A DNA stretch of 64,000 bases, taken from NCBI GenBank assembly GCA_033549065.1, contig JAWSUE010000001.1, forward strand, positions 179,136 to 243,135, read 5' to 3'. Origin of the DNA: Bacillota bacterium (GTDB lineage Bacteria > Bacillota > Dethiobacteria > DTU022). The notes beneath the pieces are model-generated. The model was not told the origin of the DNA and did no database searches. It was given only the letters and a program-made list of their open reading frames with translations. A program made the translations under genes and the position numbers. Shown here piece after piece: positions 1 to 12,534 of the stretch (position 1 is the first letter of the stretch; the number at the start of each line of letters is the position of its first letter).

Positions 1-2130
1 TTGTTGAGCTAATACTGTTGTAGGAACTAGTACTGCTACCTGTTTTCCTTCCATAATAACTTTAAAAGCTGCACGCATAGCCACTTCCGTTTTTCCATAA
101 CCTACATCACCACAAATCAATCGATCCATAGGATGGCTCTTTTCCAGATCCAGCTTAACCTCTTGAATAGCACGCATTTGATCCTGTGTCTCATCATAAG
201 GAAAATACGACTCAAAATCCTGCTGCCACGGATGATCAGGACCGTACTGATAACCTTCAGTAGCTTCTCTGGCAGCATAGAGCGCCAGCAATTCACCCGC
301 CAGTTCTTCAACCGAACGGTGAACCCTGCTCTTCAATCGCTGCCATTCGCTGCCGCCTAAACTATGCAGCCGTGGCGGAGGTGCATCTCCTCCCGAATAT
401 TTTTGGATTAGCTGAACCTGTTCCACAGGGATGAAAAGCTTATCAGTTCCCCTGTATTTTAAATGAAGGTAATCACGTTTTACTCCGCTTATTTCCAAGG
501 TTTTTATCCCTTGGTACTTTCCTATACCATGCTGTTCGTGAACCACATAGTCACCAGGTTCAAGTTCACGATAATTACTTAAACGTATTCCCCCATAATC
601 GGCCGGTTTTCGCTTCTTTTTATGTCGGGGAAGCAAATGTTGGGTGGAAATAACTGCTAATTTTATACTGGAAATAAGAAAACCTTCGTCAAGATTTGCT
701 ACGCGTATCGGTAGTGGTTCTGTCAAATAGCTTTTTAAACCTTTACTCTCCTGCTCCGATGTTGCACAAATTATTACCTTAAATCCTTCTTTCTTAAAGG
801 TCTGGTAGTCGCTGTTAAAAAGCTGCCATTGCCCGTGATAATAGGGGATACTTTTACTTTCGATACAGTAATCCTCACTTGTTTGTAGTAAATTTTTCCC
901 CTCCGGAAATAATGAAAAACTTACCAGGGGACAGGATATATTGGTATAAAGCTCATTTTCTTTCAGAATAAAATCTCTTCCGGCAGCCAATTCCAGAAGT
1001 TCAATAATCTTGTTAACACTATGGTCATTGATCTCATTTCGTAATGTATTCCCTTTTTCAAAGAGGATTCCAGGTTCCTCTACTAAAACCAGGTAATCTG
1101 AGTCGATATAATCAAGCAGCGAAGAACCGTTTCCATAAAAGTAAGGGAAATAAATACTCAGCATATCCAGGCCATCAGGTTGCATTAACCGTTCCAGATG
1201 ACTTTCAACCTGTTGATTTAAAAAAGAAGCTGATTCATGATCTCCCCGCCTGCGAAGGTTGGCAGCCGCTTTGTCAAGTTTCAGGCGAATCTCTTTCTCG
1301 CCGGTTTCCTTTAGATCTCCTGAAATAATAAGTTCGCTGGCCGGTAGTATTAAAAGTTGATCTACATTTTTTGTTGAACGCTGGGTAAGGGGATCATAAT
1401 TCCTAATAGATTCAACCAGGTTATCATAAAGCGCTAGACGATGAGGGTGGTTTCGTCCGGTTGGATAAATATCTATGATATCGCCCCTTACGCTGAACTG
1501 ACCTCCTTTTTCTGCTAAAGTAACTCTTTCATAACCAAGATCAACCAATTGAGCAATCAGATTTTCCCGGTTGAGAGTGGAACCCGGTTTAACTTCTATT
1601 GCCAGGCTGTACCAAATCTCCGGAGGGATAACCCTGGTAAGCAGTGCCTGGTTTGTTGTTACATATACACCGGAGCCCCTGTTCCCAAGCCACTCGTAAA
1701 ATCCCATTCGCATTGCTGAATATTCTTCACTGCGAGATATTACTTCACTGCTTATGAATAACTCTCTGGAAGGTAATGATCTGACTTTGCCTGGTAAAAA
1801 TACAGATAAATCGGCATACATCTTTTCTGCACGGGCATTATCAGCAGTGATCACAATAGCAGGTTTTTCATTGTTTAATACCAATGCTGCCATGAAAAAT
1901 GCTCTTGCGCTACCATCAAGACCACTAACTGACAACCTGGTTTTGTTGTTATTAGTCAACTTAGTTATAATCTCATTGAAGAGTTCAAGGTCTCTCCATA
2001 ACCCTAATATGTCATTAAACAATAGAAAGTTCTCTCCGTTTCCTGCTGATATGAGTACAACAAAAGAAAGGGGATTTTTTATCCCCCAGGCAAGTGAATA
2101 AATTATATCTTTCGGGCCAGTTAGAGTCAA
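1..2130 (-). CDS. mfd: Transcription-repair coupling factor Mfd, partial (N-terminal ~700 aa; C-terminus runs off the window start). It is absent from the ORF track because no stop codon falls inside the window.
   Basis: My own minus-strand translation gives the N-terminal '...LSVSGLDGSARAFFMAALVLNNEKPAIVITADNARAEKM...' and, near nt 90-150, the helicase motif I 'LICGDVGYGKTEVAMRAAFKVIMEGKQVAVLVPTTVLAQQ'. It sits next to pth, as mfd does in Bacillus. The start is probably TTG at 2130, with an in-frame TAA at 2138-2140; the start is uncertain. Confidence 0.75.
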   Translation of the reverse strand, partial: MTLTGPKDIIYSLAWGIKNPLSFVVLISAGNGENFLLFNDILGLWRDLELFNEIITKLTNNNKTRLSVSGLDGSARAFFMAALVLNNEKPAIVITADNARAEKMYADLSVFLPGKVRSLPSRELFISSEVISRSEEYSAMRMGFYEWLGNRGSGVYVTTNQALLTRVIPPEIWYSLAIEVKPGSTLNRENLIAQLVDLGYERVTLAEKGGQFSVRGDIIDIYPTGRNHPHRLALYDNLVESIRNYDPLTQRSTKNVDQLLILPASELIISGDLKETGEKEIRLKLDKAAANLRRRGDHESASFLNQQVESHLERLMQPDGLDMLSIYFPYFYGNGSSLLDYIDSDYLVLVEEPGILFEKGNTLRNEINDHSVNKIIELLELAAGRDFILKENELYTNISCPLVSFSLFPEGKNLLQTSEDYCIESKSIPYYHGQWQLFNSDYQTFKKEGFKVIICATSEQESKGLKSYLTEPLPIRVANLDEGFLISSIKLAVISTQHLLPRHKKKRKPADYGGIRLSNYRELEPGDYVVHEQHGIGKYQGIKTLEISGVKRDYLHLKYRGTDKLFIPVEQVQLIQKYSGGDAPPPRLHSLGGSEWQRLKSRVHRSVEELAGELLALYAAREATEGYQYGPDHPWQQDFESYFPYDETQDQMRAIQEVKLDLEKSHPMDRLICGDVGYGKTEVAMRAAFKVIMEGKQVAVLVPTTVLAQQ

Positions 2131-2363
2131 CCAGGTTTAATGAACTCCAATATAACCAGCTTAACCATTCCTTTTTACGTCTGACATGTGACCTTTATAC
2201 GTCATTTCTATGCCCGCATTTTTAATCAAATATGTTGCTTAACACGCGCTATATGAGAGCTTTATAAAAATATTAAATTTCTTTTTATCCGGATCACCTT
2301 TGAAACTCGTGATTTATGCTAATCAGATTAAAAATATATTTTATAGTTTTCTGTCACAAATGT

Positions 2364-2379
2364 TGGCATGAAGATTGCT
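2364..2379 (+). promoter_or_regulatory. Sigma-54 (-24/-12) promoter TGGCAT-N5-TTGCT upstream of the FNT gene
   Basis: The sequence tGGCATgaagaTTGCt fits TGGCAC-N5-TTGCW with GG/GC spacing exactly right, about 65 nt upstream of ATG 2445. A sigma-54 activator is encoded 4 kb downstream. Confidence 0.6.
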
Positions 2380-2444
2380 TTATAGTAACTCAGAGGAACA
2401 GTAAATTTGCTTCTAAATATTATTAAAGAAAGGAGGCAGTAATA

Positions 2445-3533
2445 ATGGCTGAGAAATGTTCATTCTGGAACGAGTACGATTCGATTGCAGGGCATGTTTG
2501 CTACTGTGAATTAGCTGCCTTCAACAGACCGGTAAATACCAACTTTCTGTCTGCAATCGGCTGTACTCCTGAAAAACGAAAGGAGTGCATGCTGAAGATG
2601 GAAAATGTGACCGGCATTGGAGTTGTACCTGAGGAACTCCCGGTTCCGGTATCTGTCCCGGCGGCAACTACACCCGTAACTTCATGCGATACCCCGGCAG
2701 AAATTGCCAGATCCGTTGTCGGTGTAGCTCAGAAAAAAGCTGCTACCGCGCCGGTTTCATTGATTATGCTTGCTCTTCTGGCTGGAGCATACATTGCGCT
2801 TGGAGCAGTTATGTTCACCATCATCACCAATGATCTTGCTGTATATATTGGTGATGGTCTTAGTCGTTTGGTCGGTGGCATATCTTTCTCCATCGGTCTG
2901 ATTCTGGTAATCCTCGGAGGGGCTGAACTTTTTACAGGAAATAACCTGTTGGTCACAGGATATCTGGATAAAAAAGTGAGCGGCAGGCAGGTTTTGAACA
3001 ATTGGGTATGGGTTTACCTGTTCAACTTTGCCGGAGCACTATTAGTGGTTGCCTTATTCTACTTCTCAGGCATCTGGAAAGCTAACGACGGCAGCATCGC
3101 TCTCAGGGTCATCAATATCGCTTATGCCAAATCAACTCTCACCTGGGGTGAGGCGCTTTTCAGAGGCATACTGTGCAATTGGCTGGTCTGCCTCGCAGTT
3201 TGGTTATCCCTGGCAGGAAAAGATGCCATAAGCAAGATCCTGGGAATAATGATTCCGATTACAGCATTTGTCGCTGCTGGATTTGAGCACTCAATTGCCA
3301 ACATGTATTTTGTCCCAATGGGTATTATGGTTAAAAACAATATATTTATTCAGGGACTGGTTTCTCCGGCAATACTGCAGTCTATCAGCTGGCAGTCATT
3401 TTTCCTGAACAACCTGATTCCCGTTACTATAGGCAACATCATAGGTGGAGTTGTTTTTGTTGCTGTTGCTTACTGGACATGTTACCTTCGCCCGACCATG
3501 TCAGATAAACTAATCACCAATGGAAGATCCTAG
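2445..3533 (+). CDS. Formate/nitrite transporter (FNT) family channel with a ~70-aa N-terminal cysteine-rich cytoplasmic domain plus a Pro/Thr linker
   Basis: FNT signature 'AAGFEHSIANMYFVP' and six TM segments are present. The N-terminus 'CSFWNEYDSIAGHVCYC...GCTPEKRKEC..MENVTGIGVVPEE' is paralogous to ORF 3575-3838. A strong RBS 'aaaggagg' precedes the start. Confidence 0.8.
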   Translation: MAEKCSFWNEYDSIAGHVCYCELAAFNRPVNTNFLSAIGCTPEKRKECMLKMENVTGIGVVPEELPVPVSVPAATTPVTSCDTPAEIARSVVGVAQKKAATAPVSLIMLALLAGAYIALGAVMFTIITNDLAVYIGDGLSRLVGGISFSIGLILVILGGAELFTGNNLLVTGYLDKKVSGRQVLNNWVWVYLFNFAGALLVVALFYFSGIWKANDGSIALRVINIAYAKSTLTWGEALFRGILCNWLVCLAVWLSLAGKDAISKILGIMIPITAFVAAGFEHSIANMYFVPMGIMVKNNIFIQGLVSPAILQSISWQSFFLNNLIPVTIGNIIGGVVFVAVAYWTCYLRPTMSDKLITNGRS

Positions 3534-3574
3534 CTGCAGACAGCCCTGGATTTAAAAGGTGAGGAGGGAGTATC

Positions 3575-3838
3575 ATGAAAAAGATGGTTAACTGCACAAA
3601 TTGGAAAGAGTACCAGAGTTTGAACGGTTGGGTTATGTTCTGCAGTGCCGGGGCTTACGGCCGCAAGTTAACCGTTGAAGAAGCAAGAAGCTGCGGCTGC
3701 ACCGAATTGCAGAGGCAAAAATGCAAGAAATTGATGGAAAACAATGTAGGCTTTGGCCTTGTTCCTGAAGTAAATGAAGAATCTTTTGTTCTCGAAAAAC
3801 ATACCCACCTAGAACCGATTCTTACCAGGAAGCATTAA
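3575..3838 (+). CDS. Small standalone Cys-rich protein, paralog of the FNT N-terminal domain
   Basis: Four Cys align between the two copies. The conserved pattern is C-x2-W-x-EY-x-S-x2-G-x-V-x2-C ... GCT-x-E-x-R-x2-C-x-K-x-MEN-x2-G-x-G-x-VPE. RBS is GGAGGG. Confidence 0.6.
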   Translation: MKKMVNCTNWKEYQSLNGWVMFCSAGAYGRKLTVEEARSCGCTELQRQKCKKLMENNVGFGLVPEVNEESFVLEKHTHLEPILTRKH

Positions 3839-3875
3839 TATTATGAAGATTAGCCCATTGACATTATTTAATAAA

Positions 3876-3908
3876 GAGCCCCGGCTTTTCTTTCGGGGCT
3901 TTTTATTT
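3876..3908 (+). terminator. Rho-independent terminator after the small Cys-rich gene
   Basis: GC hairpin GCCCCGG...CGGGGC followed by TTTTTATTT. Confidence 0.6.
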
Positions 3909-3990
3909 CAGAATTGAAGGATAAAGAAAGCATTTTACCGAATACTTGAGCAAAATATACTGAAATTATTTCCAAAGGAAGGTCCGAAAT

Positions 3991-5160
3991 ATGTATATCA
4001 GCAAATTTGTGACCCCGGAAATAATCTTTGGCACCGGCTCATTAAACCAAATAGGCGAATGCTGCAGCCGGCTCGGTTCATCGAAGGTATTTCTTGTTGC
4101 CGACCAGGGAGTTGTCCGCTGCGGGTGGGTTAATAAAGCTCTATCCTTTCTAGAGGAAGCCGGCATGGAATACCGTATATGGTCGGATTTTTCAGCCAAC
4201 CCCCGCGACTACGAAGTTGAAGATGGGCTTAAGCAGTATATGGAAGCAGGCTGTGATGCAGTTTTAGCAATCGGCGGGGGAAGCGCTGTCGATGCAGCCA
4301 AAGCGGTTGCAACACTGTCGACAAACAAGGGGAAAATCCACGACTTTGAAGGCATTGACATGATTGATGAACCACTGCCGCCATTGATAGTTGTTTCCTC
4401 TACGGCCGGTTCTGGTGCAGAAGTATCCCAGTTTGCCATAATTTCTGATAGCCACAGAAAGATTAAGATGACTATTATTTCCAAATCACTGGTCCCTGAT
4501 ATAGCAATTTCTGATCCTCTGATTTTATCTACGATCAACAGCAAGGTAACCGCCCACACCGGTATGGAGGCATTGAGCCATGCAATTGAAGCCTATTTAT
4601 CACTGGCTGCAACTGATATAACTGATATTCATGCTCTTCAGTCCATTAAACTAATCTCTTCAAATCTTCGTTCTTCGGTAGCCAGCCAGGTCGATGAGGC
4701 AGCTAAAATCGCCATGGCACAAGCCAGTATCCATGCCGGTATTGCCTTTTCCAATGCAGTGCTTGGCCTGACACATGCCATGACGCATCAGGTGGGTGGT
4801 CTTTTAGACCTTCCAATCGGAACTATCAGCGCTGTTTTACTTCCCTATGTGATGCGCTTTAACCTGTTAGCCTGTGTAGACAAGTACGCATCCATAGCGA
4901 GGGCTATGGGAGCACAGACCGAGCATTTATCAAAAAGAGAAGCAGCTGAAAAAGCGATCGAACTTGTACAGGAATTGTCACATGATGTAGGCATACCTGC
5001 CGGATTGGCAGATCTGGGATTACCTGAGAAATCTATCCCGGAACTGAGCAGGAATGCCATGAACGATGCGTGCTTTATAACAAATCCCCGCGATGCAGAC
5101 GAAGAAGATATTGCCAGTATATTCCATGCAGCGCTTGAAATGCCTGGAGGTTTATGCTAA
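3991..5160 (+). CDS. Iron-containing (group III) alcohol dehydrogenase
   Basis: 'GGGSAVDAAKAVA' NAD-binding motif and His-rich metal-site region 'THAMTHQVGG', typical of Fe-ADH (FucO/EutG/DhaT-like). Confidence 0.8.
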   Translation: MYISKFVTPEIIFGTGSLNQIGECCSRLGSSKVFLVADQGVVRCGWVNKALSFLEEAGMEYRIWSDFSANPRDYEVEDGLKQYMEAGCDAVLAIGGGSAVDAAKAVATLSTNKGKIHDFEGIDMIDEPLPPLIVVSSTAGSGAEVSQFAIISDSHRKIKMTIISKSLVPDIAISDPLILSTINSKVTAHTGMEALSHAIEAYLSLAATDITDIHALQSIKLISSNLRSSVASQVDEAAKIAMAQASIHAGIAFSNAVLGLTHAMTHQVGGLLDLPIGTISAVLLPYVMRFNLLACVDKYASIARAMGAQTEHLSKREAAEKAIELVQELSHDVGIPAGLADLGLPEKSIPELSRNAMNDACFITNPRDADEEDIASIFHAALEMPGGLC

Positions 5161-6332
5161 TGGTTATTCAAAGTAAAAAAATATTAATTGAAAAATTAAC
5201 CGGGGTTCATAGCTCTAAGAAATCTTATTATGTGGCCCTGAAAAATAAAATAAACGAGTTGCTCGAAATCAAACGTGACTGGGAAGTCACCTTTTCTGCA
5301 GTAACCGATTTGCTTGTATTTATCAACAACAATTACGAAATACAGCGGGTAAATCAAGCTGCAATTGATTTTTTTACCATGCCGGAAAGCGATATAATAG
5401 GTTCAAAATGTTATCATCTTTTTTATGGGCGTGATACAAAATGTACCCCCTGCCTTGGGGATCAGGTATTAAGCTCTCAAAAGACATCATATTTACAATC
5501 GAGAACCCGGTTTAACCGTGTTCTCGATATTTTTGCTTACCCTGCATTTACAGAACTTTTTGAACCTTACGGCGTTACATACTATGCAAAGGATGTAACC
5601 CGTCTCGTCGACTCCATAAAATTAGTATCAATGGGTGAGATGTCTGCCGGTGTGGCACATGAGTTAAATAGCCCTTTAACTGCTATAGTTGGCAACTCAC
5701 AACTGCTGCTGCGGGAAACTCCTGAAGATAATCCACAATATCAACTAATCAAGGATATCCACAGTAGTGGCATAAGGTGTCAGCGAATTATTAAGAACCT
5801 GCTGACATTCTCCAGGCAGGAGGAGCTAAATTTCGAAGAAGTGGACATTAACACAGTTGTTGACAGCGCCCTTGCCCTGGCTGCATTTCAAATAGAAAAG
5901 AGCAAGATCCGGTTGGCAGTCAATAAAACTGCCGGTATACCAATGTTAACAGGCAGTCCTAACGGACTCGAACAGATAATTGTAAACCTCCTTCTTAATG
6001 CGAAGGATGCTGTTGAAGAAAAATTGAATAATGAAGGGAAAGGAGCAAAAGGAAAAATTGCTATTTCTACTAGAATTCACCCGGAAGGCGAACTGGTAAT
6101 AATCGATATAAAAGACAACGGCAGTGGGATTGCTGAAGAATATATTCCCCAGATCTTTAATCCATTTTATACCACTAAAAAAAGCGGCAAGGGAACCGGA
6201 CTCGGATTATCTGTGAGCCTCGGCATCGCCCAGGCACACGGCGGTTTTATCGATGTTGATACTGCTGTTGGCGAAGGAAGCACATTCAGTTTGATTCTGC
6301 CACTGCACAAAACAGAAAAAAACAACATTTAA
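5154..6332 (+). CDS. Cytoplasmic PAS-domain sensor histidine kinase (NtrB-like)
   Basis: No TM segment. PAS-like region with 'CYHLFYGRDTKCTPC'. H-box 'AGVAHELNSPLTAI'. HATPase N/G boxes 'NLLLNAKDA','DNGSGI','GTGLGLS'. Confidence 0.8.
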   Translation: MLMVIQSKKILIEKLTGVHSSKKSYYVALKNKINELLEIKRDWEVTFSAVTDLLVFINNNYEIQRVNQAAIDFFTMPESDIIGSKCYHLFYGRDTKCTPCLGDQVLSSQKTSYLQSRTRFNRVLDIFAYPAFTELFEPYGVTYYAKDVTRLVDSIKLVSMGEMSAGVAHELNSPLTAIVGNSQLLLRETPEDNPQYQLIKDIHSSGIRCQRIIKNLLTFSRQEELNFEEVDINTVVDSALALAAFQIEKSKIRLAVNKTAGIPMLTGSPNGLEQIIVNLLLNAKDAVEEKLNNEGKGAKGKIAISTRIHPEGELVIIDIKDNGSGIAEEYIPQIFNPFYTTKKSGKGTGLGLSVSLGIAQAHGGFIDVDTAVGEGSTFSLILPLHKTEKNNI

Positions 6333-6388
6333 TCTATATTTGATGCATTGAAAAGTATCTTAATTTCCTTTTAGCCGGAGGACTAAGC

Positions 6389-7897
6389 ATGACCAGGAAA
6401 GCAAAATTCTTCATTGTCGATGATGAACGGGAAGTATGCAATTTTTTCAGTTATCTTCTTCACCAAAAAGGCCATGATGTTGTAACTGCAACATCAGGAG
6501 TAGAAGCTACTGCAAAACTTAAAGAGCATAAATTTGATACTGCCCTCGTTGATTTAAAGCTGCCTGATGCAAATGGGCTTGATATTCTGAGAGAAATCAA
6601 GAAGAATCAACCCGACTGCGAAGTGATAATTATAACCGGTTATTCAACCGTTAAATCGGCTGTAGAAGCTATTCAGCTTGGCGCCTTTGATTATGTGGAA
6701 AAACCATTCGCCGATATTGAGGAAATGGAAAATTTACTGGAACGTTCATTGAACGTAAGAGAAGACACAGAAAAATTATTTCTTGAACAGCAGGAGCTTG
6801 GATTTATAATCGGGAAAAGCCACCGGATGATTAACCTGATATCTGCTGCTCAAAAAATCGCAAAAAAAAATATAACGGTTTTGATCCAGGGAGAAACAGG
6901 AACCGGCAAAGAAGTTCTGGCCAGATACATACATTCCGTCAGCCACCGTACTGATCGTCCATTTCTCGCTTTTAACTGCGGTGCATTTACAGAAACCCTG
7001 CTCGAAAGTGAGCTTTTCGGACACGAAAAGGGATCATTTACCGGGGCAACACACAAGAAAAAAGGCATTTTTGAACTGGCCCATAAAGCAACATTATTTC
7101 TTGATGAAATTGATTCGGCCAGTCCGGCTATTCAGATTAAACTGCTCCGGGTACTTGAAACTGGAGAATTCCTCAGGGTTGGCGGGGAAGAAATGTGCAA
7201 GGTTGATGTCAGAATTATTACAGCTACTAATGCAAATCTGGCGCAAAAAGTTGCAAACAATGAGTTCAGGGAAGATCTTTTCTACCGCCTCGATGTCGCA
7301 TCTCTTCATATACCACCCCTTCGTGAAAGACCTGAGGACATTGAGCTGTTTATTGATTACTTCCTGGACAAAGAATCCCAATTAAAACAAATACCTATGA
7401 AAAAATTCTCTACTGAAGCTATTGAACTGATAAAAAAACATGATTGGCCGGGAAATATCCGGGAGCTCTCAAACACTGTTGCCCAGTCACTACTGCTCAG
7501 CAAAGGATCACTTATTGAGGTTGAAGATCTTCCGGAAAGAATCAGCAGATGTCTACCGGAACAGGCACCCGATAAGGCATATGATGACCCTTCTGCTGCC
7601 GGAAAACAATTCGAATCATTTATATCTGTTGATTCCGAAGGTGCAAATCTGGCAGAACAGTTAATTAAGTTCGAGAATATACTCTTTAAGACTATAAATT
7701 ACCGGAGAGGCTTTAATTTTGAGCTTTTCAGTAATGAAATAAACTGTTGGCGGGATAACTTGATGGCAAAAATCATTGAAAATGCACTTGAAGATACTTA
7801 CGGAAATCAGGTTAAAGCAGCTCAATTGCTGGGCATAACTCCCCGTGCACTAAGATACCATCTGCAAAAACCAAAAAATTCGTCGACCCGCAGATAG
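6389..7897 (+). CDS. Sigma-54-dependent response regulator (NtrC family: REC + AAA+ + Fis HTH)
   Basis: REC 'FFIVDDE...VDLKLPD'. Walker A 'GETGTGKE'. GAFTGA-type 'EKGSFTGA'. C-terminal HTH 'AAQLLGITPRALRYHLQK'. Confidence 0.85.
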   Translation: MTRKAKFFIVDDEREVCNFFSYLLHQKGHDVVTATSGVEATAKLKEHKFDTALVDLKLPDANGLDILREIKKNQPDCEVIIITGYSTVKSAVEAIQLGAFDYVEKPFADIEEMENLLERSLNVREDTEKLFLEQQELGFIIGKSHRMINLISAAQKIAKKNITVLIQGETGTGKEVLARYIHSVSHRTDRPFLAFNCGAFTETLLESELFGHEKGSFTGATHKKKGIFELAHKATLFLDEIDSASPAIQIKLLRVLETGEFLRVGGEEMCKVDVRIITATNANLAQKVANNEFREDLFYRLDVASLHIPPLRERPEDIELFIDYFLDKESQLKQIPMKKFSTEAIELIKKHDWPGNIRELSNTVAQSLLLSKGSLIEVEDLPERISRCLPEQAPDKAYDDPSAAGKQFESFISVDSEGANLAEQLIKFENILFKTINYRRGFNFELFSNEINCWRDNLMAKIIENALEDTYGNQVKAAQLLGITPRALRYHLQKPKNSSTRR

Positions 7898-7925
7898 CAA
7901 ACTCCTAAATAGTTGTTACAGAAAA

Positions 7926-8753
7926 TTACCGGTGAACCGGATATGAACCGAGCAGCTTTAAAAAGGGAACAGCCCCTTCAATGCTCTTCCATAATTCTTC
8001 TCTTCCAGGTTCATTTCGGTGCCCTTCACAGTCTATAAAAAACAGCCAATCTCCGATTATCTGCCTTGAAGGACGAGATTCAATCCGGGTCAGGTTAATA
8101 TTACGCTCAGCAAAAAATCCTAAAATCTTGTACAGACTGCCGGCACCGTCGGGTATAGTCATAACCAGGGAAGTCTTGTCATTTCCTGTGGGAGGATGAT
8201 CAGCATGGGAAAGCACAATAAACCTGGTTTGGTTTTCTACAACATCCTGAATTCCTTCCTTTAAAATACAGAGATTAAATAGATCAGCTGCTCTTTTAGG
8301 AGCAATCGCAGCAGCATCCTGAAAACAGGAAACCAATCTGGCAGCAGCAGCAGTGCTCTCAACAGGGATAAGCTCAGCATGCTTGAATTTATTTTCAAGA
8401 AATCCAGCACACTGACCCAAAGCATGAGGATGAGAAATAACCTGTAGGATATCTTCAAATTTTATTTTTTCAACAGCCATCAGGCACTGCCTGATGGGAC
8501 AAATAATTTCATGACTGATATAAATCTCTGACAAACGCACCAGGTGGTCAAGAGTTGCCGCTATCCCCCCTTCTAGATTATTATCAAGAGGTACGATACT
8601 TTCTTCAACCTCTGAATCGACCACTGCTTTTATTACAGAAGGAATCGTTGGATATTCAATTAATTCCATATCTCTTTTACGACAATAGATCATAGCTGCT
8701 TCTTCGGAAAAAGTACCTCCCGGACCCAAAAAACCTAATTTTTTTCGTATCAA
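7926..8753 (-). CDS. pheA: Prephenate dehydratase (PDT + ACT domain)
   Basis: 'TRIESRPSR' ACT region and PDT-domain conservation. 275 aa. Confidence 0.75.
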   Translation of the reverse strand: MIRKKLGFLGPGGTFSEEAAMIYCRKRDMELIEYPTIPSVIKAVVDSEVEESIVPLDNNLEGGIAATLDHLVRLSEIYISHEIICPIRQCLMAVEKIKFEDILQVISHPHALGQCAGFLENKFKHAELIPVESTAAAARLVSCFQDAAAIAPKRAADLFNLCILKEGIQDVVENQTRFIVLSHADHPPTGNDKTSLVMTIPDGAGSLYKILGFFAERNINLTRIESRPSRQIIGDWLFFIDCEGHRNEPGREELWKSIEGAVPFLKLLGSYPVHR

Positions 8754-8754
8754 T

Positions 8755-9804
8755 TTATACCCTACCTTCCTTCTGAATACTATTCTGCGAAGGCATAGAT
8801 CTATTCATGGCAAGCGCAATCGGTGTTACGGCTTCCAGTAATTTCTCATAGTTTTCAGGGGTCAAAGACTGAGGGCCATCACACAAAGCTTCAGCAGGCT
8901 TGTGATGAACCTCTATCAATAAACCATCAGCTCCAGCTGCAACTGCCGCCTGAGAAAGGGGTGCCGCTAATCGCCAACTACCGCTTGAATGACAGGGATC
9001 TGCGATAACCGGTAGATGACTTAACTCTTTTGCCTGTGGTATTGCGCTGATATCAAGTGTGCTGCGGGTAGACGTTTCAAAAGTTCTAATTCCCCTTTCA
9101 CAAAGTATAACCTGAAAGTTATTTTCGGCAAGAATATACTCAGCTGCCATCAGCCATTCCTCCAGGGTGGCCGCAAGACCTCTTTTTAAAAGGACAGGTT
9201 TATTACTGCGGCCAGCTTCACGAAGCAGAGAGAAGTTTTGCATATTTCTGGCACCGATCTGGAGAATATCTGTATAGCATGCAACCATTTCCACCTCCTG
9301 GGGGTTTAACACTTCGGTAACAATTTTTAGACCGGTCTCCAGCCTGGCAGTTTCCAGCATTTTAAGGCCATCCAATTCCAGTCCCTGAAAACTGTAAGGT
9401 GAAGATCGAGGTTTAAAAGCACCCCCTCTGAGAACCTGGGCGCCTGCTGCTTTCACTAAACGGGCAATCGTTAAAAGTTGTTCTTCATTTTCCACTGCAC
9501 AAGGTCCAGCCATAAATATAAGTTCTTTTCCACCTATTTCGAGATCACCAATCTTGATCACACTATTAGTTTCTTTTGCCTGACGGCTTACCAGTTTGTA
9601 AGGAGCAGTTATCGGCACTACCCGTTCAACGCCAGCTAAAACTTCCAACCCGGTGGGGAATACTACCTTTTGTTCACCTACTGCACCAATTACTACCCTG
9701 CCCACACCTTGTATCCGGTGTGGCGAAAATCCCAATTCAACTAATTTTTCTTCAACATTCTCAACTTCTTTTTGAGCAGCTGACTGTTTCATTACAATAA
9801 TCAT
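8755..9804 (-). CDS. aroF: 3-deoxy-7-phosphoheptulonate (DAHP) synthase, type I-beta, with N-terminal regulatory domain
   Basis: 'GPCAVENEEQLL...LRGGAFKPRSSPYSFQG' DAHPS/KDO8PS-fold motifs. Abuts pheA. Confidence 0.75.
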   Translation of the reverse strand: MIIVMKQSAAQKEVENVEEKLVELGFSPHRIQGVGRVVIGAVGEQKVVFPTGLEVLAGVERVVPITAPYKLVSRQAKETNSVIKIGDLEIGGKELIFMAGPCAVENEEQLLTIARLVKAAGAQVLRGGAFKPRSSPYSFQGLELDGLKMLETARLETGLKIVTEVLNPQEVEMVACYTDILQIGARNMQNFSLLREAGRSNKPVLLKRGLAATLEEWLMAAEYILAENNFQVILCERGIRTFETSTRSTLDISAIPQAKELSHLPVIADPCHSSGSWRLAAPLSQAAVAAGADGLLIEVHHKPAEALCDGPQSLTPENYEKLLEAVTPIALAMNRSMPSQNSIQKEGRV

Positions 9805-9844
9805 TTATTGTTACCCCTTTTTAAAATCTACTGTACTTTTTTCG

Positions 9845-10150
9845 CATCAATATAAATAATAAATAAAAAATCCGCCCTTTAAGGGACGGATTAAAATCCG
9901 CGGTACCACCCAAATTGATGATTATCCACTCAATAAGTACGGGCATAAGATTTAATTCTGCCGATACCCTCTCCCTGTAACGGGGAAGAACCGTTAACAC
10001 CTACTTTGCCTTATGAATATCCGGTTTTCAGTGCAAAACTTCGAAGGGAACTTCAACAAGCAGTTTCCCGGCCGGATTTTCAGCCATTGATCCAACCTCT
10101 CTGGAGAGTTGCTATGCTTGCCTACTTTCCTTCTGCATTGTTTTTTAAAT
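9845..10150 (-). promoter_or_regulatory. T-box riboswitch leader (probably Phe-responsive) upstream of aroF-pheA
   Basis: Minus-strand T-box sequence AAUUUGGGUGGUACCGCGG (9898-9916) is followed by a terminator hairpin AAUCCGUCCC-UUAAA-GGGCGGAUUUUUU (9865-9896). The upstream stem-I-like region contains GAAGUUCCCUUCGAAG with UUC codons. Confidence 0.7.
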
Positions 10151-10175
10151 ATATATTGTGAGTAATCTTAACATA

Positions 10176-10784
10176 TTAATCCTCTGAAGACAACCCCTGG
10201 TTAAAATTATTCATGGCTGTGTCAATACCGTCATTAATGAAGGTTAAAACTGCTTCTGCTGATTGGTCAACAGCACGATCAAATATCTCCTGATCCGGCT
10301 TTTCAATTTGCAGTAAAACGTAATCCGTAACTTCCAAATAATCTGGCGGTTGGCCAATACCGATTCGTAATCTTAAAAACTGATTGGTATCCAGAGAATC
10401 AATTACAGATTGGATTCCTTTATGGCCACCGCTCCCACCCTGCTTACGAATTCTGATCATTCCGGGAGGAAGATCCAGATCATCATAGATCACGAGCATA
10501 TGCTCTAAATCTACCTGTAGATTGCGAAGGAGCTCAAAAACCGCCTTTCCGCTGAGATTCATATAGGTTAGAGGTTGAGCCAGGACAACCTCCTTATTAT
10601 TATAAAAAGCTTTTGCAATAAGTGACCAGTGCTTCTGTTCAGGGTTCCCGGTTTTCAATCGCCGTGACAGGGCTTCAATTACCCGAAATCCTAAATTATG
10701 CCTGCTGCCTGCATATTTACTTCCCGGATTTCCAAGGCCGACAATAAGGTACATAAAACCACCCACTTCAAGGATATCAACCAT
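10176..10784 (-). CDS. pth: Peptidyl-tRNA hydrolase
   Basis: 'LIVGLGNPG..Y..RHN.GF' N-terminus, 202 aa, conserved position after ctc. Confidence 0.85.
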   Translation of the reverse strand: MVDILEVGGFMYLIVGLGNPGSKYAGSRHNLGFRVIEALSRRLKTGNPEQKHWSLIAKAFYNNKEVVLAQPLTYMNLSGKAVFELLRNLQVDLEHMLVIYDDLDLPPGMIRIRKQGGSGGHKGIQSVIDSLDTNQFLRLRIGIGQPPDYLEVTDYVLLQIEKPDQEIFDRAVDQSAEAVLTFINDGIDTAMNNFNQGLSSED

Positions 10785-10843
10785 TTGAAAAAAACAATGC
10801 CCCTCCGAAGAGGGGCATTTCTGAAAAAGACGGCTGTAATAAA

Positions 10844-11527
10844 TTAACTTTCCTCTTCTGTTTCTTCTTCAGCAGGCTCTTCTTCAGTAACTTCTTCTCC
10901 AGCAGCTTCCTCGCCTTCTTCGAGTTCTTCCTCAACTGCCGGTTCAAGTTCTTCTTCCGCCATCGGGGCAAGGACTTGTGCCAGAGTAGTATCAGGAGGC
11001 GTGATCAATTCAAAAGCGCTCCCCAGATTAATACTCTCTGCTGTGATACTGTCGCCAATATTCAAATCTGATATATCAATATCAAATTGTTCAGGAATAT
11101 CTGCGGGCAGACATTTAATGAGAACTTCACGGGTCGGCAGGGAAACAACTCCGCCTTCCGAGACTCCCACCGGTTCACCGGTAAAGTTCAGGTGAACAGC
11201 AACCTCGATCTTATCAGTCATGGAGATACGGATAAAATCAACATGTAAAATCCGATCATGATAGATCATATCTCTTTGAATATCTCTGAACATAACGGTT
11301 TCCTGACGGGTCTTTTTCCCTTTTGCTTTAACAGCGAGGTCAATCAGAACGTTGCTTCCGCCAGTTGTAAGAACCTGTCTTAAAGAACGTCCGTCCAGAA
11401 CCAGGGGAAGGGTGTCGTCGCCCTTACCGTAAATAACCGCCAACACCTTGTCTTCTCCACGCAATTGATGGCGCTGACCCTTGGTCAAAGACGGGCGGGC
11501 TTGTGCTTCTAAAACCATTCTTTCCAT
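10844..11527 (-). CDS. ctc: Ribosomal protein L25 / general stress protein Ctc, with a highly acidic C-terminal tail
   Basis: L25/Ctc fold conservation and the prs-ctc-pth synteny. Tail 'EEELEEGEEAAGEEVTEEEPAEEETEEES'. Confidence 0.75.
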   Translation of the reverse strand: MERMVLEAQARPSLTKGQRHQLRGEDKVLAVIYGKGDDTLPLVLDGRSLRQVLTTGGSNVLIDLAVKAKGKKTRQETVMFRDIQRDMIYHDRILHVDFIRISMTDKIEVAVHLNFTGEPVGVSEGGVVSLPTREVLIKCLPADIPEQFDIDISDLNIGDSITAESINLGSAFELITPPDTTLAQVLAPMAEEELEPAVEEELEEGEEAAGEEVTEEEPAEEETEEES

Positions 11528-11580
11528 TCATTCCAGCCTCCTTCTGCAATAGTATACTTCAGGAAGCGTTTAAGATCAAC

Positions 11581-12534
11581 TCAATCAAAGAGTTCACTGA
11601 CAGAAATTTTATTTTGAATACGCATTATTGCTTCTCCAATTAACGGCGCTACGGATAACTCCTTAAAACAACCACGTAGTCCCTTCAGCAAACCTTTGTC
11701 AACCGGTATAGTATTTGTATAAACTACTTCCGTAATTCTCGAGTCACTCAGGCGTTTCAGGGCGGGTCCTGAGAAAACCGGATGAGTGCAGCAGGCGTAC
11801 ACCTCTCTGGCTCCTTCTTCAAGAAGTGCTTCAGCACCCAGTGTTATTGTACCGGCGGTATCAATCATGTCATCAATAAATATTGCAGTTTTATCCTTAA
11901 CATCACCGATGATATGCATAATTTCCGCTTTATTGGGAGCTGGTCTCTTTTTATCAATAATTGCTATAGGCATCATAAGCCGGTTAGCCAGTTCTCTTGC
12001 CCTGGTAACACCGCCAAGATCCGGTGATACTACAACTCCATTTATAATTTTTTTCTGCTTAATATAATTAGCCAAAATAGGTAGAGCCGTGAGGTGATCG
12101 AGGGGAATATTAAAAAACCCCTGTATCTGGCCTGCATGCAAATCCATTGCTACTACACGGTTTGCCCCGGCGGCAGTTATCAGATCTGCCAACAGCTTTG
12201 CGGTAATAGGATCACGAGCCCTGGTTTTTCGGTCCTGCCGAGCGTAAGCATAATATGGAACGACGGCATTAACTGATTTCACTGAAGCTCTCCTCAGGGC
12301 GTCAATTATGATTAAAAGTTCCATAATGCTTTCATTGATTGGGCTGCTCAAGGGTTGAATTAAAAAGGAGTTGGTACCTCTAACGCTTTCCCTGATACTT
12401 ATCGCAATTTCTCCGTCGCTAAATCTGCTGACTTCACAGTCTCCGAGTGGGACGCCAATATAACAGGCAATTTGCTCCGCCAGGTTCCGGTTAGCGCTGC
12501 CACAGAAAATTTTCAACTCTTCGCCATTTACCAA
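11581..12534 (-). CDS. prs: Ribose-phosphate pyrophosphokinase
   Basis: PRPP-synthetase motifs '[11 protein letters not shown]' and '[10 protein letters not shown]'. Confidence 0.9.

Follow-up and report, generated by a model that had tools for sequence, protein, structure and literature searches.

A conserved five-gene unit of Dethiobacteria-like Firmicutes may couple a FocA-like channel to a sigma-54 activator and an alcohol dehydrogenase-like sensor

A block of five genes at positions 2364–7897 of a 64,000-nucleotide (64-kb) stretch of DNA from a Bacillota bacterium (Dethiobacteria, DTU022; assembly GCA_033549065.1, contig JAWSUE010000001.1, positions 179,136 to 243,135 of the forward strand; the whole stretch is called the window) was found to be conserved as a unit in uncultured, Dethiobacteria-like anaerobic Firmicutes. 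The genes encode an FNT-family channel with an N-terminal four-cysteine (four-Cys) domain, a small four-Cys protein, a protein of the iron-type alcohol dehydrogenase (Fe-ADH) family, a PAS histidine kinase, and a sigma-54 enhancer-binding response regulator. Their open reading frames (ORFs) lie at the positions and carry the domains that had been given in an initial annotation made from the sequence alone; both were confirmed with the ORF list and with Pfam and NCBIfam. Our analysis makes it rather probable that these proteins form a circuit in which an ADH-like sensor, the kinase, and the activator switch on a formate-type channel. The regulators are of a known kind; the really new element is the pair of four-Cys domains, one of them borne by a FocA-type channel.

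Related loci were gathered with a profile of the channel N-terminal domain, which gave 55 genome loci (designated by L and a number), and extra loci were added by exact-protein look-up. The profile was made from a narrow alignment and was biased to the YCELAAFN type, so that Syntrophaceticus-type channels were under-sampled. The loci were labelled Dethiobacteria or Syntrophomonadaceae, and their habitats were soda-lake sediments and biogas reactors. All five genes were present in the same order in 34 of the 55 genome loci, and 16 more loci were consistent with that order up to the end of the contig. Further copies of the module, some of them in other chromosomal contexts, were found beyond these 55. 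Conservation of the gene set in related genomes, proposed as a check when the block was first described, is thus an observed property of the unit.

The initial annotation had placed a near-consensus −24/−12 promoter, TGGCAT-N5-TTGCT, directly upstream of the channel gene. This sequence, TGGCATGAAGATTGCT, was the sole exact match to TGGCAY-N5-TTGCW in the window. Statistics within the window were weak: 0.21 exact matches were expected, one or more matches arose in 17 of 100 shuffled sequences, and with one mismatch allowed there were 3 matches compared with 4.9 expected. Because the window statistics alone do not establish the promoter, it was judged on comparative data. Both strands of approximately 0.70 Mb of locus DNA (1.40 Mb scanned) were searched with the pattern TGG[CT]A[CT]-N5-[TC]TGC[ATC]. 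A −24/−12 element was present 37–89 nt upstream of the orthologous channel start in 50 of 56 loci, and these 50 elements made up the greater part of the 66 pattern matches in all of the locus DNA. Having found the motif in conserved position in orthologous loci, where its absence would have spoken against the promoter, and few matches elsewhere, we concluded that the element is a conserved functional site and, to judge from this comparison, a real sigma-54 promoter. The usual geometry of sigma-54 promoters predicts a transcription start near 2389–2391. An Rfam scan of positions 1900–8100 gave no match, and a riboswitch or small-RNA account of the leader is therefore not indicated.

The statement in the initial annotation that no obvious palindromic upstream activating sequence (UAS) precedes the promoter proved to be wrong. 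An imperfect palindrome, GTGACC-TTTATA-CGTCAT (GTGACCTTTATACGTCAT), is the window copy of a conserved enhancer-like element and was the only match to GTGACS-N6-CGTCAY in the 64-kb window, where 0 were expected. The consensus, GTGACG-N6-CGTCAC, was derived from upstream regions aligned by eye and from k-mer counts. In the 742 kb of DNA comprising the window and the loci, the 23 matches that agreed in 11 or 12 of the 12 half-site bases were, without exception, located 60–220 nt upstream of an FNT sigma-54 promoter, as were 18 of the 23 that agreed in 10. The palindrome was found in 37 of 50 loci, a count from which L001 was left out because its copy has a 5-nt spacer. The Syntrophaceticus locus has the channel gene and the sigma-54 promoter without an adjacent activator or triad (the Fe-ADH, kinase, and activator genes), and it also lacks the upstream palindrome.

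The product of the last gene of the block matches PF00072, PF00158, PF25601, and PF02954, giving the order REC, AAA+, and C-terminal HTH_8. D55 is the acceptor residue, a GETGTGK Walker A motif begins at residue 168, and GSFTGA is found at residue 215; all of the activator orthologues examined have GSFTGA or GAFTGA. Its description as a sigma-54 enhancer-binding response regulator is thereby confirmed. Because the promoter, the palindrome, and the activator gene travel together across loci, it is very likely that this adjacent two-component activator regulates the FNT promoter, and the palindrome is presumed to be its binding site. A link that the initial annotation had drawn from proximity thus gains further support from the conserved UAS and from its absence from the Syntrophaceticus locus. 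Control by a distant sigma-54 activator, the neighborhood being incidental, would account for the channel genes of Syntrophaceticus, L036, L046, and L049, which mostly have the promoter and are without an adjacent triad. We regard such control as very improbable: promoter, palindrome, and triad co-occur across two deep clades and in different chromosomal contexts, the Syntrophaceticus promoter lacks the palindrome, and the adjacent activator is the only sigma-54 enhancer-binding protein in the window. Neither a second sigma-54 activator nor another good sigma-54 site was found in the 64 kb.

Two of these loci have arrangements of their own. In the Syntrophaceticus locus (L004), a palindrome, GATGTGCCGTAATTACGACACATC, lies downstream of the channel gene at 9284–9307; it is UAS-like, with the half-sites GTGCCG and CGACAC. 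About 420 nt beyond it, at 9718–9733, there is a second sigma-54 element, TGGCATGATATTTGCT, which is identical to that of the channel gene and heads approximately 450 nt without a long ORF, followed by an ORF of 54 codons. Locus L036 (2902–7719), from a metagenome-assembled genome (MAG) labelled Desulfovibrionaceae that is probably misbinned, has the channel and small genes with a sigma-54 promoter and a UAS-like site; after the small gene, a GAF-HisKA_3 kinase, a LuxR-type response regulator, and an acetyl-CoA synthetase take the place of the triad.

The block had originally been described as one sigma-54-controlled module. That description holds for the channel gene and the small gene; it does not hold for the Fe-ADH, kinase, and activator genes, which lie behind a terminator and have a promoter motif of their own. 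A consensus terminator scan had skipped positions 3870–3907, where the loop is longer than 8 nt, and the terminator, with UUUUUAUUU after its stem, was revealed by folding of 3860–3915. The fold had an energy of −21 kcal/mol (z = −5.4), and none of 200 shuffled sequences folded as well. By-eye inspection of 30 loci revealed a GC-rich hairpin at this position in most of them, and 16 of the 30 passed a strict hairpin-plus-T-run test.

Upstream of the Fe-ADH gene, the loci share a conserved motif, AAAGGATTT, with GAAT located 17–18 nt after AGGA. The sigma-H consensus of Bacillus subtilis is RNAGGAWWW, 11–12 nt, RNNGAATWW, and the window copy of the motif (AAGGATAAA, 3917–3943) tentatively fits it. 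When the strict sigma-H pattern A[AG]AGG[AG]DWW, 10–13 nt, N-N-N-GAAW-H was searched for on both strands of approximately 0.69 Mb of locus DNA (1.38 Mb scanned), 26 of the 55 matches were located 200 nt or less upstream of an Fe-ADH start, in 26 of 44 loci; the window copy, having G for the first A, misses this strict pattern. A sigma-70-like match at 3934–3961, overlapping the sigma-H-like motif, was dropped, as only the sigma-H-like motif is conserved. Because the terminator and a separate promoter motif stand between the small gene and the Fe-ADH gene, the block appears to consist of two transcription units, the FNT and small Cys genes as the sigma-54 target and the Fe-ADH, kinase, and activator genes as the other. 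If the regulatory genes have their own promoter, the circuit need not prime itself.

In several genomes of the biogas clade, a second Cys-domain channel gene is located between the small gene and the Fe-ADH gene (Table 1). Upstream of the copies in L033, L048, L059, and L060, a sigma-H-like motif (AAAGGAATTTACG...GCGAATA) was found instead of the sigma-54 element.

The Fe-ADH-like protein matched both Pfam halves of its family (PF00465/PF25137) at 1e-49 to 1e-55, and the GGGS NAD motif is kept at residues 95–98. Its best NCBIfam match was ErcA (NF041833), with 465.5 bits compared with a cut-off of 550; the next family scored 357. The stop codon of its gene overlaps the start of the kinase gene by 7 nt, and this pairing of Fe-ADH and kinase genes is kept in at least 34 loci. 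Alignment to solved catalytic Fe-ADHs gave the presumed metal site as E193-H197-H262-I276 compared with the canonical D-H-H-H, where the Asp and the P-H-G His positions are those that we take, from FucO, to be metal ligands. Among 43 module orthologues covering the site, 42 were of the E193/I276 type, and the 43rd, which is cut before I276, has E-H as far as it goes. Of 95 protein clusters with 69% identity or more, 94 had E/I (or M/V) and one had G in first place; the relatives that come next, 25 with 63% identity or less, had D/H. The ErcA profile prefers D and H where the window protein has E193 and I276, and reverting these to D or H raised the ErcA score by 3.0 and 6.2 bits, respectively. 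The substitutions accordingly mark out this clade and are no trait of ErcA, and by these scores the protein is not an ErcA orthologue.

One relative at 61% identity, P0303, has E-Q-H-Q-V at the five positions examined and has thus lost two further His residues. Such losses would be expected if metal binding were no longer selected in part of the family. In two Dethiobacteria-type loci, the Fe-ADH gene is absent (L045:5740–7015) or reduced to its first 50 codons (L053:7307–7456), and the channel, small protein, kinase, and activator are kept.

Because the Fe-ADH-like protein is ErcA-like, overlaps the kinase gene, and has an altered metal site, we propose that it belongs to the sensor, as the product of the first gene of a sensor operon, and is not a pathway enzyme. 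The initial annotation was correct as to its position between the channel and the regulators, and a role as a pathway enzyme is not supported. A working enzyme of a channel-fed catabolic or detoxification route, with the kinase alone sensing redox state or metals, as the initial annotation had proposed, through a PAS domain with three Cys residues, is in our view doubtful. This explanation draws on the retained GGGS motif and on E193, H197, and H262, three possible ligands that could still hold a metal and so permit catalysis. It also draws on the invariant Cys triad of the PAS domain, and on the persistence of L045 and L053, in which the kinase and activator occur without an intact Fe-ADH and the latter is evidently not indispensable. 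However, the terminator and promoter-like motif part the Fe-ADH gene from the channel genes, and its translation is coupled to that of the kinase. Absence of both the Asp and the fourth His is a fixed trait confined to this clade, and in P0303 two more His are gone (EQHQV), as is typical of a pseudoenzyme; a triad of Fe-ADH, kinase, and activator also exists without an FNT gene in Desulfoscipio. Moreover, no C1 or C2 acid carried by FNT channels is an ADH substrate without further enzymes, none of which is present.

The kinase had been described as cytoplasmic, with a PAS domain and a Cys cluster, and this description was borne out. HisKA (PF00512) and HATPase_c (PF02518) matches were clear and the H-box, HELNSP, is at residue 169; the PAS_4 and PAS_9 matches were weak and below the Pfam cut-offs. 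With a maximum KD19 of 1.15, the protein has no hydrophobic or membrane segment. Residues 86–100, in the PAS domain, are CYHLFYGRDTKCTPC, which contains C86-x10-C97-x2-C100. This Cys triad was identical in all 41 kinase orthologues examined and recurs in the L062 and L064 kinases. Residues 1–35 (window 5154–5260), with the motif LIEKLTG-x-HSSKK-x-YY, are 67–82% identical in a clade in which a GAF domain is inserted right after them, and the same peptide recurs in a separate GAF protein of Desulfoscipio (L062) and in L064; this N-terminal peptide may contact the Fe-ADH-like partner.

Triads of this kind are found apart from the channel. In an isolate of Desulfoscipio geothermicus (L062:11655–15149), an FNT-free triad is made up of an Fe-ADH, a kinase accompanied by a GAF protein, and a sigma-54 regulator, and it adjoins an aldehyde:ferredoxin oxidoreductase (AOR) gene and a second Fe-ADH gene, each with a −24/−12 element (TGGTATATATGTTGCA; TGGCACGACCCTTGCG). 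The Desulfoscipio kinase has the same C-x10-C-x2-C motif in its PAS domain; its Fe-ADH keeps D-H-H-H, unlike that of the window. L064, a high-GC MAG, has the full five-gene module with a canonical Fe-ADH. The same parts, likened here by their published description, make up the DVU2394–DVU2396 operon of Desulfovibrio vulgaris Hildenborough, in which DVU2395 is presumably the kinase. DVU2394, a sigma-54 response regulator with the GSFTGA motif common to both systems, activates the adh-hdr operon DVU2405–2397, and DVU2396 is listed as a low-abundance Fe-ADH, Adh2. The targets in D. vulgaris and Desulfoscipio are adh-hdr-flx or AOR/ADH genes, whereas the target in the window is a channel gene. We concluded that the triad belongs with the alcohol- or redox-responsive sigma-54 systems already known, with a new target and a decayed Fe-ADH in the present case.

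ErcA and ErcS are alike in that a regulatory protein of the Fe-ADH family stands beside a kinase. In published accounts, ercA adjoins the kinase gene ercS in Pseudomonas (PA1991/PA1992 in P. aeruginosa; yiaY/PP_2683 in P. putida), the pair is involved in the regulation of ethanol oxidation, and ErcS is listed as a membrane-associated hybrid kinase. The output in Pseudomonas is a LuxR-type cascade for pyrroloquinoline quinone (PQQ)-dependent dehydrogenases. In contrast, the window kinase is soluble, the output would be a sigma-54 channel promoter, and E193 and I276 (score 465 compared with 550) replace the canonical Asp and His that the ErcA profile keeps.

FhlA, with its regulon in Escherichia coli, and AdhR and AorR of Clostridia likewise use sigma-54 promoters with an upstream inverted repeat in formate or alcohol metabolism. 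These are one-component regulators that bind the effector themselves, whereas the window has a response regulator and a two-protein sensor, and none of them is reported to control an FNT gene. The statement in the initial annotation that FNT channels are not normally paired with a dedicated NtrB/NtrC-like system agrees with the published sigma-54 regulon descriptions examined, which contained no such case.

The nearest named NCBIfam pair was AtoS/AtoC of E. coli, a PAS kinase and an NtrC-type regulator of short-chain-acid use. Both scores were below the cut-offs, 204.4 compared with 646 for the kinase and 420.2 compared with 714 for the activator. AtoS is a membrane protein, whereas the window kinase is soluble, and no ato genes are present.

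The channel consists of the four-Cys domain (residues 1–62), a Pro/Ala-rich linker (approximately 63–83), and a FocA-like core (84–350), and a ribosome-binding site, aaggagg, precedes its ATG. Residues 86–344 matched PF01226 with an E value of 3e-80 and 269 bits (cut-off 34.6), and the match to TIGR00790 was 257.9 bits (cut-off 232.3). The core was compared with characterized clades, as the initial annotation had advised. Among solved relatives, FocA was nearest, with phmmer scores of 181–184 bits for FocA chains, 108 for the hydrosulfide channel, 92 for NirC, and 69 for PfFNT. All nine FocA pore residues (D/E88, T91, K156, N172, E208, H209, S210, N213, and N262) are kept; their window counterparts, E161, T164, K229, N245, E281, H282, S283, N286, and N331, were invariant in 60 relatives. 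Genes for an FdhA-type formate dehydrogenase or for FdhD were located 0.1–6 kb from the module in five lineages (L044, L030, L055, L067/68, and L049); the FdhA-type neighbor, a truncated fragment, scored 628.6 bits to TIGR01591, for which the cut-off is 666. Because the core is FocA-like, all nine pore residues are kept, and formate dehydrogenase genes lie nearby, formate appears to be the most likely cargo. Cultured Dethiobacteria include syntrophic oxidizers of ethanol and acetate, which possibly use H2 or formate as carriers.

The detoxification of sulfide or metals suggested for the block in the initial annotation found no support, nor did that of nitrite, with 183 bits for FocA compared with 108 for the hydrosulfide channel and 92 for NirC and with fdhA- or fdhD-type genes nearby in five lineages. 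The channel did not reach the cut-offs of the curated FocA equivalogs (254.5 compared with 290.1 bits for TIGR04060; 208.7 compared with 440 for NF008069), and we consider it FocA-like without assigning it as a FocA orthologue.

The same circuit might carry another small anion, mainly acetate but also lactate, nitrite, or hydrosulfide, although we think this unlikely. Oxidation of ethanol yields acetate as its carbon product, and the pH of soda lakes is too high for acetate to exit in its free-acid form. Channels of the FocA type are permeable to further small monocarboxylates; in vitro, the E. coli protein conducts both acetate and lactate. In L001, the module has a divergently oriented thiolase gene as its neighbor, and in L036 the channel and small genes are followed by one for an acetyl-CoA synthetase; with such neighbors, acetate is a possible cargo. 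The likeness to AtoS/AtoC, regulators of short-chain-acid use, and the sub-threshold FocA scores point the same way. The AtoS and AtoC scores, however, are far below their cut-offs (204 compared with 646; 420 compared with 714), the core is far closer to FocA (184 bits) than to the hydrosulfide channel (108), NirC (92), or the lactate carrier PfFNT (69), and the kept pore residues and the recurrence of formate dehydrogenase genes as neighbors favor formate.

Enterobacterial FocA resembles the window channel in its core and in the nine pore residues, including T91 and H209. Its cytoplasmic N-terminus is used for control through interaction with PflB, and the N-terminus of the window channel would also be cytoplasmic. 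The FocA N-terminus is short and without a Cys domain, and FocA has no free N-terminal paralogue, whereas the window channel has both. The focA gene is co-transcribed with pflB from sigma-70 promoters.

The relationship between the small Cys protein and the channel had been overlooked in the initial annotation. The small protein aligned to FNT residues 5–63 with 39% identity over 59 residues (E value 1e-15) and is a free paralogue of the channel N-terminal domain. C5, C21, C40, and C48 of the channel were invariant in 60 full-length relatives. The small protein has its conserved Cys at C7, C23, C42, and C50; in 44 homologous clusters, none of which is named or has a Pfam domain, C23, C42, and C50 were invariant and C7 nearly so. 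The fused and free forms thus share four Cys in the spacing C-x15-C-x18-C-x7-C, together with a G-x-G-x-VPE end. In almost every locus the small gene comes immediately after the FNT gene; in the window it has a strong ribosome-binding site (gaggagg, 7 nt upstream). Its product, with a maximum KD19 of 0.53, is without a membrane segment and soluble.

A profile search of 1.84 billion representative proteins yielded only 43 members with the four-Cys domain, which in these either stands alone as a small protein, is fused to an FNT channel or, in two or three cases, is joined to a helix-turn-helix (HTH) DNA-binding domain. By eye, the HTH fusions have an XRE-type HTH at the N-terminus (P0191 and P0185) or an excisionase/MerR-like HTH at the C-terminus (P0168). 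Sensor domains are commonly joined to such partners, and the fusions suggest that the domain can be the sensor input of transcription factors. P0196 and P0207, large matches to the domain profile, are low-complexity Thr/Ser-rich proteins and were judged spurious. The domain had no Pfam or NCBIfam match at 0.01, and when 39 members were scanned at E values up to 10, only scattered noise appeared, the best being DUF2769 (2 members, 0.016). AlphaFold modeled the small protein poorly (pLDDT 63.5), and a Foldseek search of the PDB returned no match with E < 3. The probable ligand of the domain is a metal or an Fe-S cluster, and its probable role is to gate the channel or to dock a partner; we favor a metal- or redox-binding module in the cytoplasm that serves control or docking, the free protein being its soluble competitor.

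The circuit that we consider the more probable account of the block would operate as follows. The sensor operon would be transcribed from its own sigma-H-like promoter, so that the regulators are supplied independently of sigma-54. The Fe-ADH-like protein, with its NAD(H) motif and degenerate metal site, would be the ligand-binding partner of the cytoplasmic kinase, and the two would jointly signal that an alcohol or aldehyde is present, or reflect the NADH/NAD+ state tied to alcohol oxidation. The kinase would phosphorylate the activator on D55, and the activator would bind at 2188–2205 and remodel the sigma-54 holoenzyme at 2364–2379. A bicistronic mRNA starting near 2390 and ending at the terminator at 3870–3907 would then be translated into two products: a pentameric channel of the FocA type, with formate or formic acid as its most likely cargo, and the cytoplasmic four-Cys domain as a separate soluble protein, the free paralogue modulating gating or docking by its fused counterpart. 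In this way, a formate route could be opened when reducing power derived from alcohol needs disposal, formate being a soluble electron carrier of syntrophic alcohol and acetate oxidizers. The identity of the UAS-binding protein, the signal, the cargo, the role of the four-Cys domain, and the alcohol-induced formate route we infer from gene content and order, the promoter-like elements, the UAS, the terminator, the conservation of these features, and the protein family relations.

Several observations weigh against this circuit. Besides the FocA and ErcA scores below their cut-offs, the three remaining metal ligands, the breadth of FocA-type cargo, the thiolase and acetyl-CoA synthetase neighbors, and the loci without an intact Fe-ADH, all described above, they include the following: all of the loci come from MAGs; no RpoN box is encoded, and neither rpoN nor sigH was seen, within the 64-kb window, the part of the genome covered; the validated DVU2394 site is a direct repeat, whereas the window UAS is a palindrome; and the four-Cys domain was modeled with low confidence (pLDDT 63–73 in the full-length channel) and had no fold match.

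A more far-reaching form of the circuit can be offered tentatively, as a minority view. In it, the four-Cys domain would be a new metal, Fe-S, or thiol control module, tethered to each protomer by the Pro/Ala linker, that gates the pore or docks a formate-producing enzyme. The free paralogue would compete with it or cap it, adding a post-translational redox or metal setting to the transcriptional switch, and the Fe-ADH-like protein would be a true pseudoenzyme serving as the ligand receptor of a soluble kinase.

The block is flanked by mfd and aroF-pheA, and ORF coordinates confirmed these neighbors as first annotated. The mfd gene starts at approximately 2050 and extends leftwards past the window edge; pheA and aroF occupy 7926–9804 on the minus strand and are followed by pth, ctc, and prs, also on the minus strand. 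The window and L017 (14548–16422) are the only cases in which aroF-pheA separates the module from pth. Among the remaining syntenic genomes, the 14 whose sequence reaches far enough mostly have pth no more than approximately 0.1 kb beyond the activator gene; in L011 and L014 the distance is up to about 2 kb.

The initial annotation had regarded the block as an accessory island. This view was contradicted by the mfd-pth position of the block, which is common to 16 related genomes whose Mfd proteins are only 42–55% identical, and by its G+C content, 42.3% compared with 42.7% for the window. Because the module lies in other chromosomal contexts in the biogas clade, the block must have moved in evolution, yet it is an old resident at the mfd-pth site. 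A recently acquired island for sulfide or metal detoxification would explain why the block interrupts a pth-mfd linkage usual in Bacillota and lies elsewhere in other clades. With the shared site, the matching G+C content, no similarity to detoxification genes, and no integrase, transposase, or repeat borders seen in positions 1–12000 of the window, this origin is hardly credible.

On the minus strand of the region between mfd and the channel gene, a near-consensus sigma-70 promoter (TTGACT-17-TATAAT, 11 of 12 bases) at 2102–2130 is directed toward mfd, the leader of which has a GC-rich hairpin and a T-run at 2069–2087. This 380-nt intergenic region thus holds divergent promoters of two sigma classes.

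Table 1. Features of the block in the window and second channel copies at related loci
Feature	Position	Strand	Description	Basis
Candidate UAS	2188–2205	.	Imperfect palindrome GTGACC-TTTATA-CGTCAT, GTGACCTTTATACGTCAT	Center approximately 168 nt upstream of −24
Sigma-54 −24/−12 promoter (predicted)	2364–2379	+	TGGCAT-N5-TTGCT, TGGCATGAAGATTGCT	66 nt before FNT ATG
FNT channel gene	2445–3533	+	362 aa	ORF list, Pfam, NCBIfam
Small four-Cys protein gene	3575–3838	+	87 aa	ORF list, homology to FNT N-terminus
Intrinsic terminator (predicted)	3870–3907	+	15-pair stem, then UUUUUAUUU	Fold of 3860–3915
Sigma-H-like promoter (tentative)	3917–3943	+	AAGGATAAA, GAAT 18 nt after AGGA	Tentative assignment
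Fe-ADH-like gene	3991–5160	+	389 aa	ORF list, Pfam, NCBIfam
PAS histidine kinase gene	5154–6332	+	392 aa	ORF list, Pfam, NCBIfam
REC-AAA+-HTH_8 activator gene	6389–7897	+	502 aa	ORF list, Pfam
Second channel copy	L033:3682–4701			
Second channel copy	L048:2057–3130			
Second channel copy	L059:5939–7006			
Second channel copy	L060:737–1804			
Second channel copy	L067:9001–10062			

In anaerobic digesters and soda-lake sediments, formate is one of the main carriers by which electrons pass between species, and the regulation of its passage across the membranes of syntrophs is poorly known. The module is a compact case, with a defined promoter, an enhancer, a three-protein sensor, and a two-protein output, and it is found in dozens of uncultured genomes; Desulfoscipio geothermicus, a cultured species, could serve as a test organism for the triad. 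An FNT channel that has a folded Cys domain on its cytoplasmic side, and a twin of that domain as a separate protein, bears on the N-terminal control of FocA-type channels. An Fe-ADH clade with a decayed metal site in which the link to a kinase is kept could explain how "regulatory dehydrogenases" of the ErcA type work. If the plain form of the circuit is right, the module is a new wiring of familiar parts, mainly of use for annotating such MAGs. If the Fe-ADH-like protein is a pseudoenzyme, the Fe-ADH–kinase–sigma-54 triads of anaerobes would be a general class of enzyme-derived alcohol or redox sensors.

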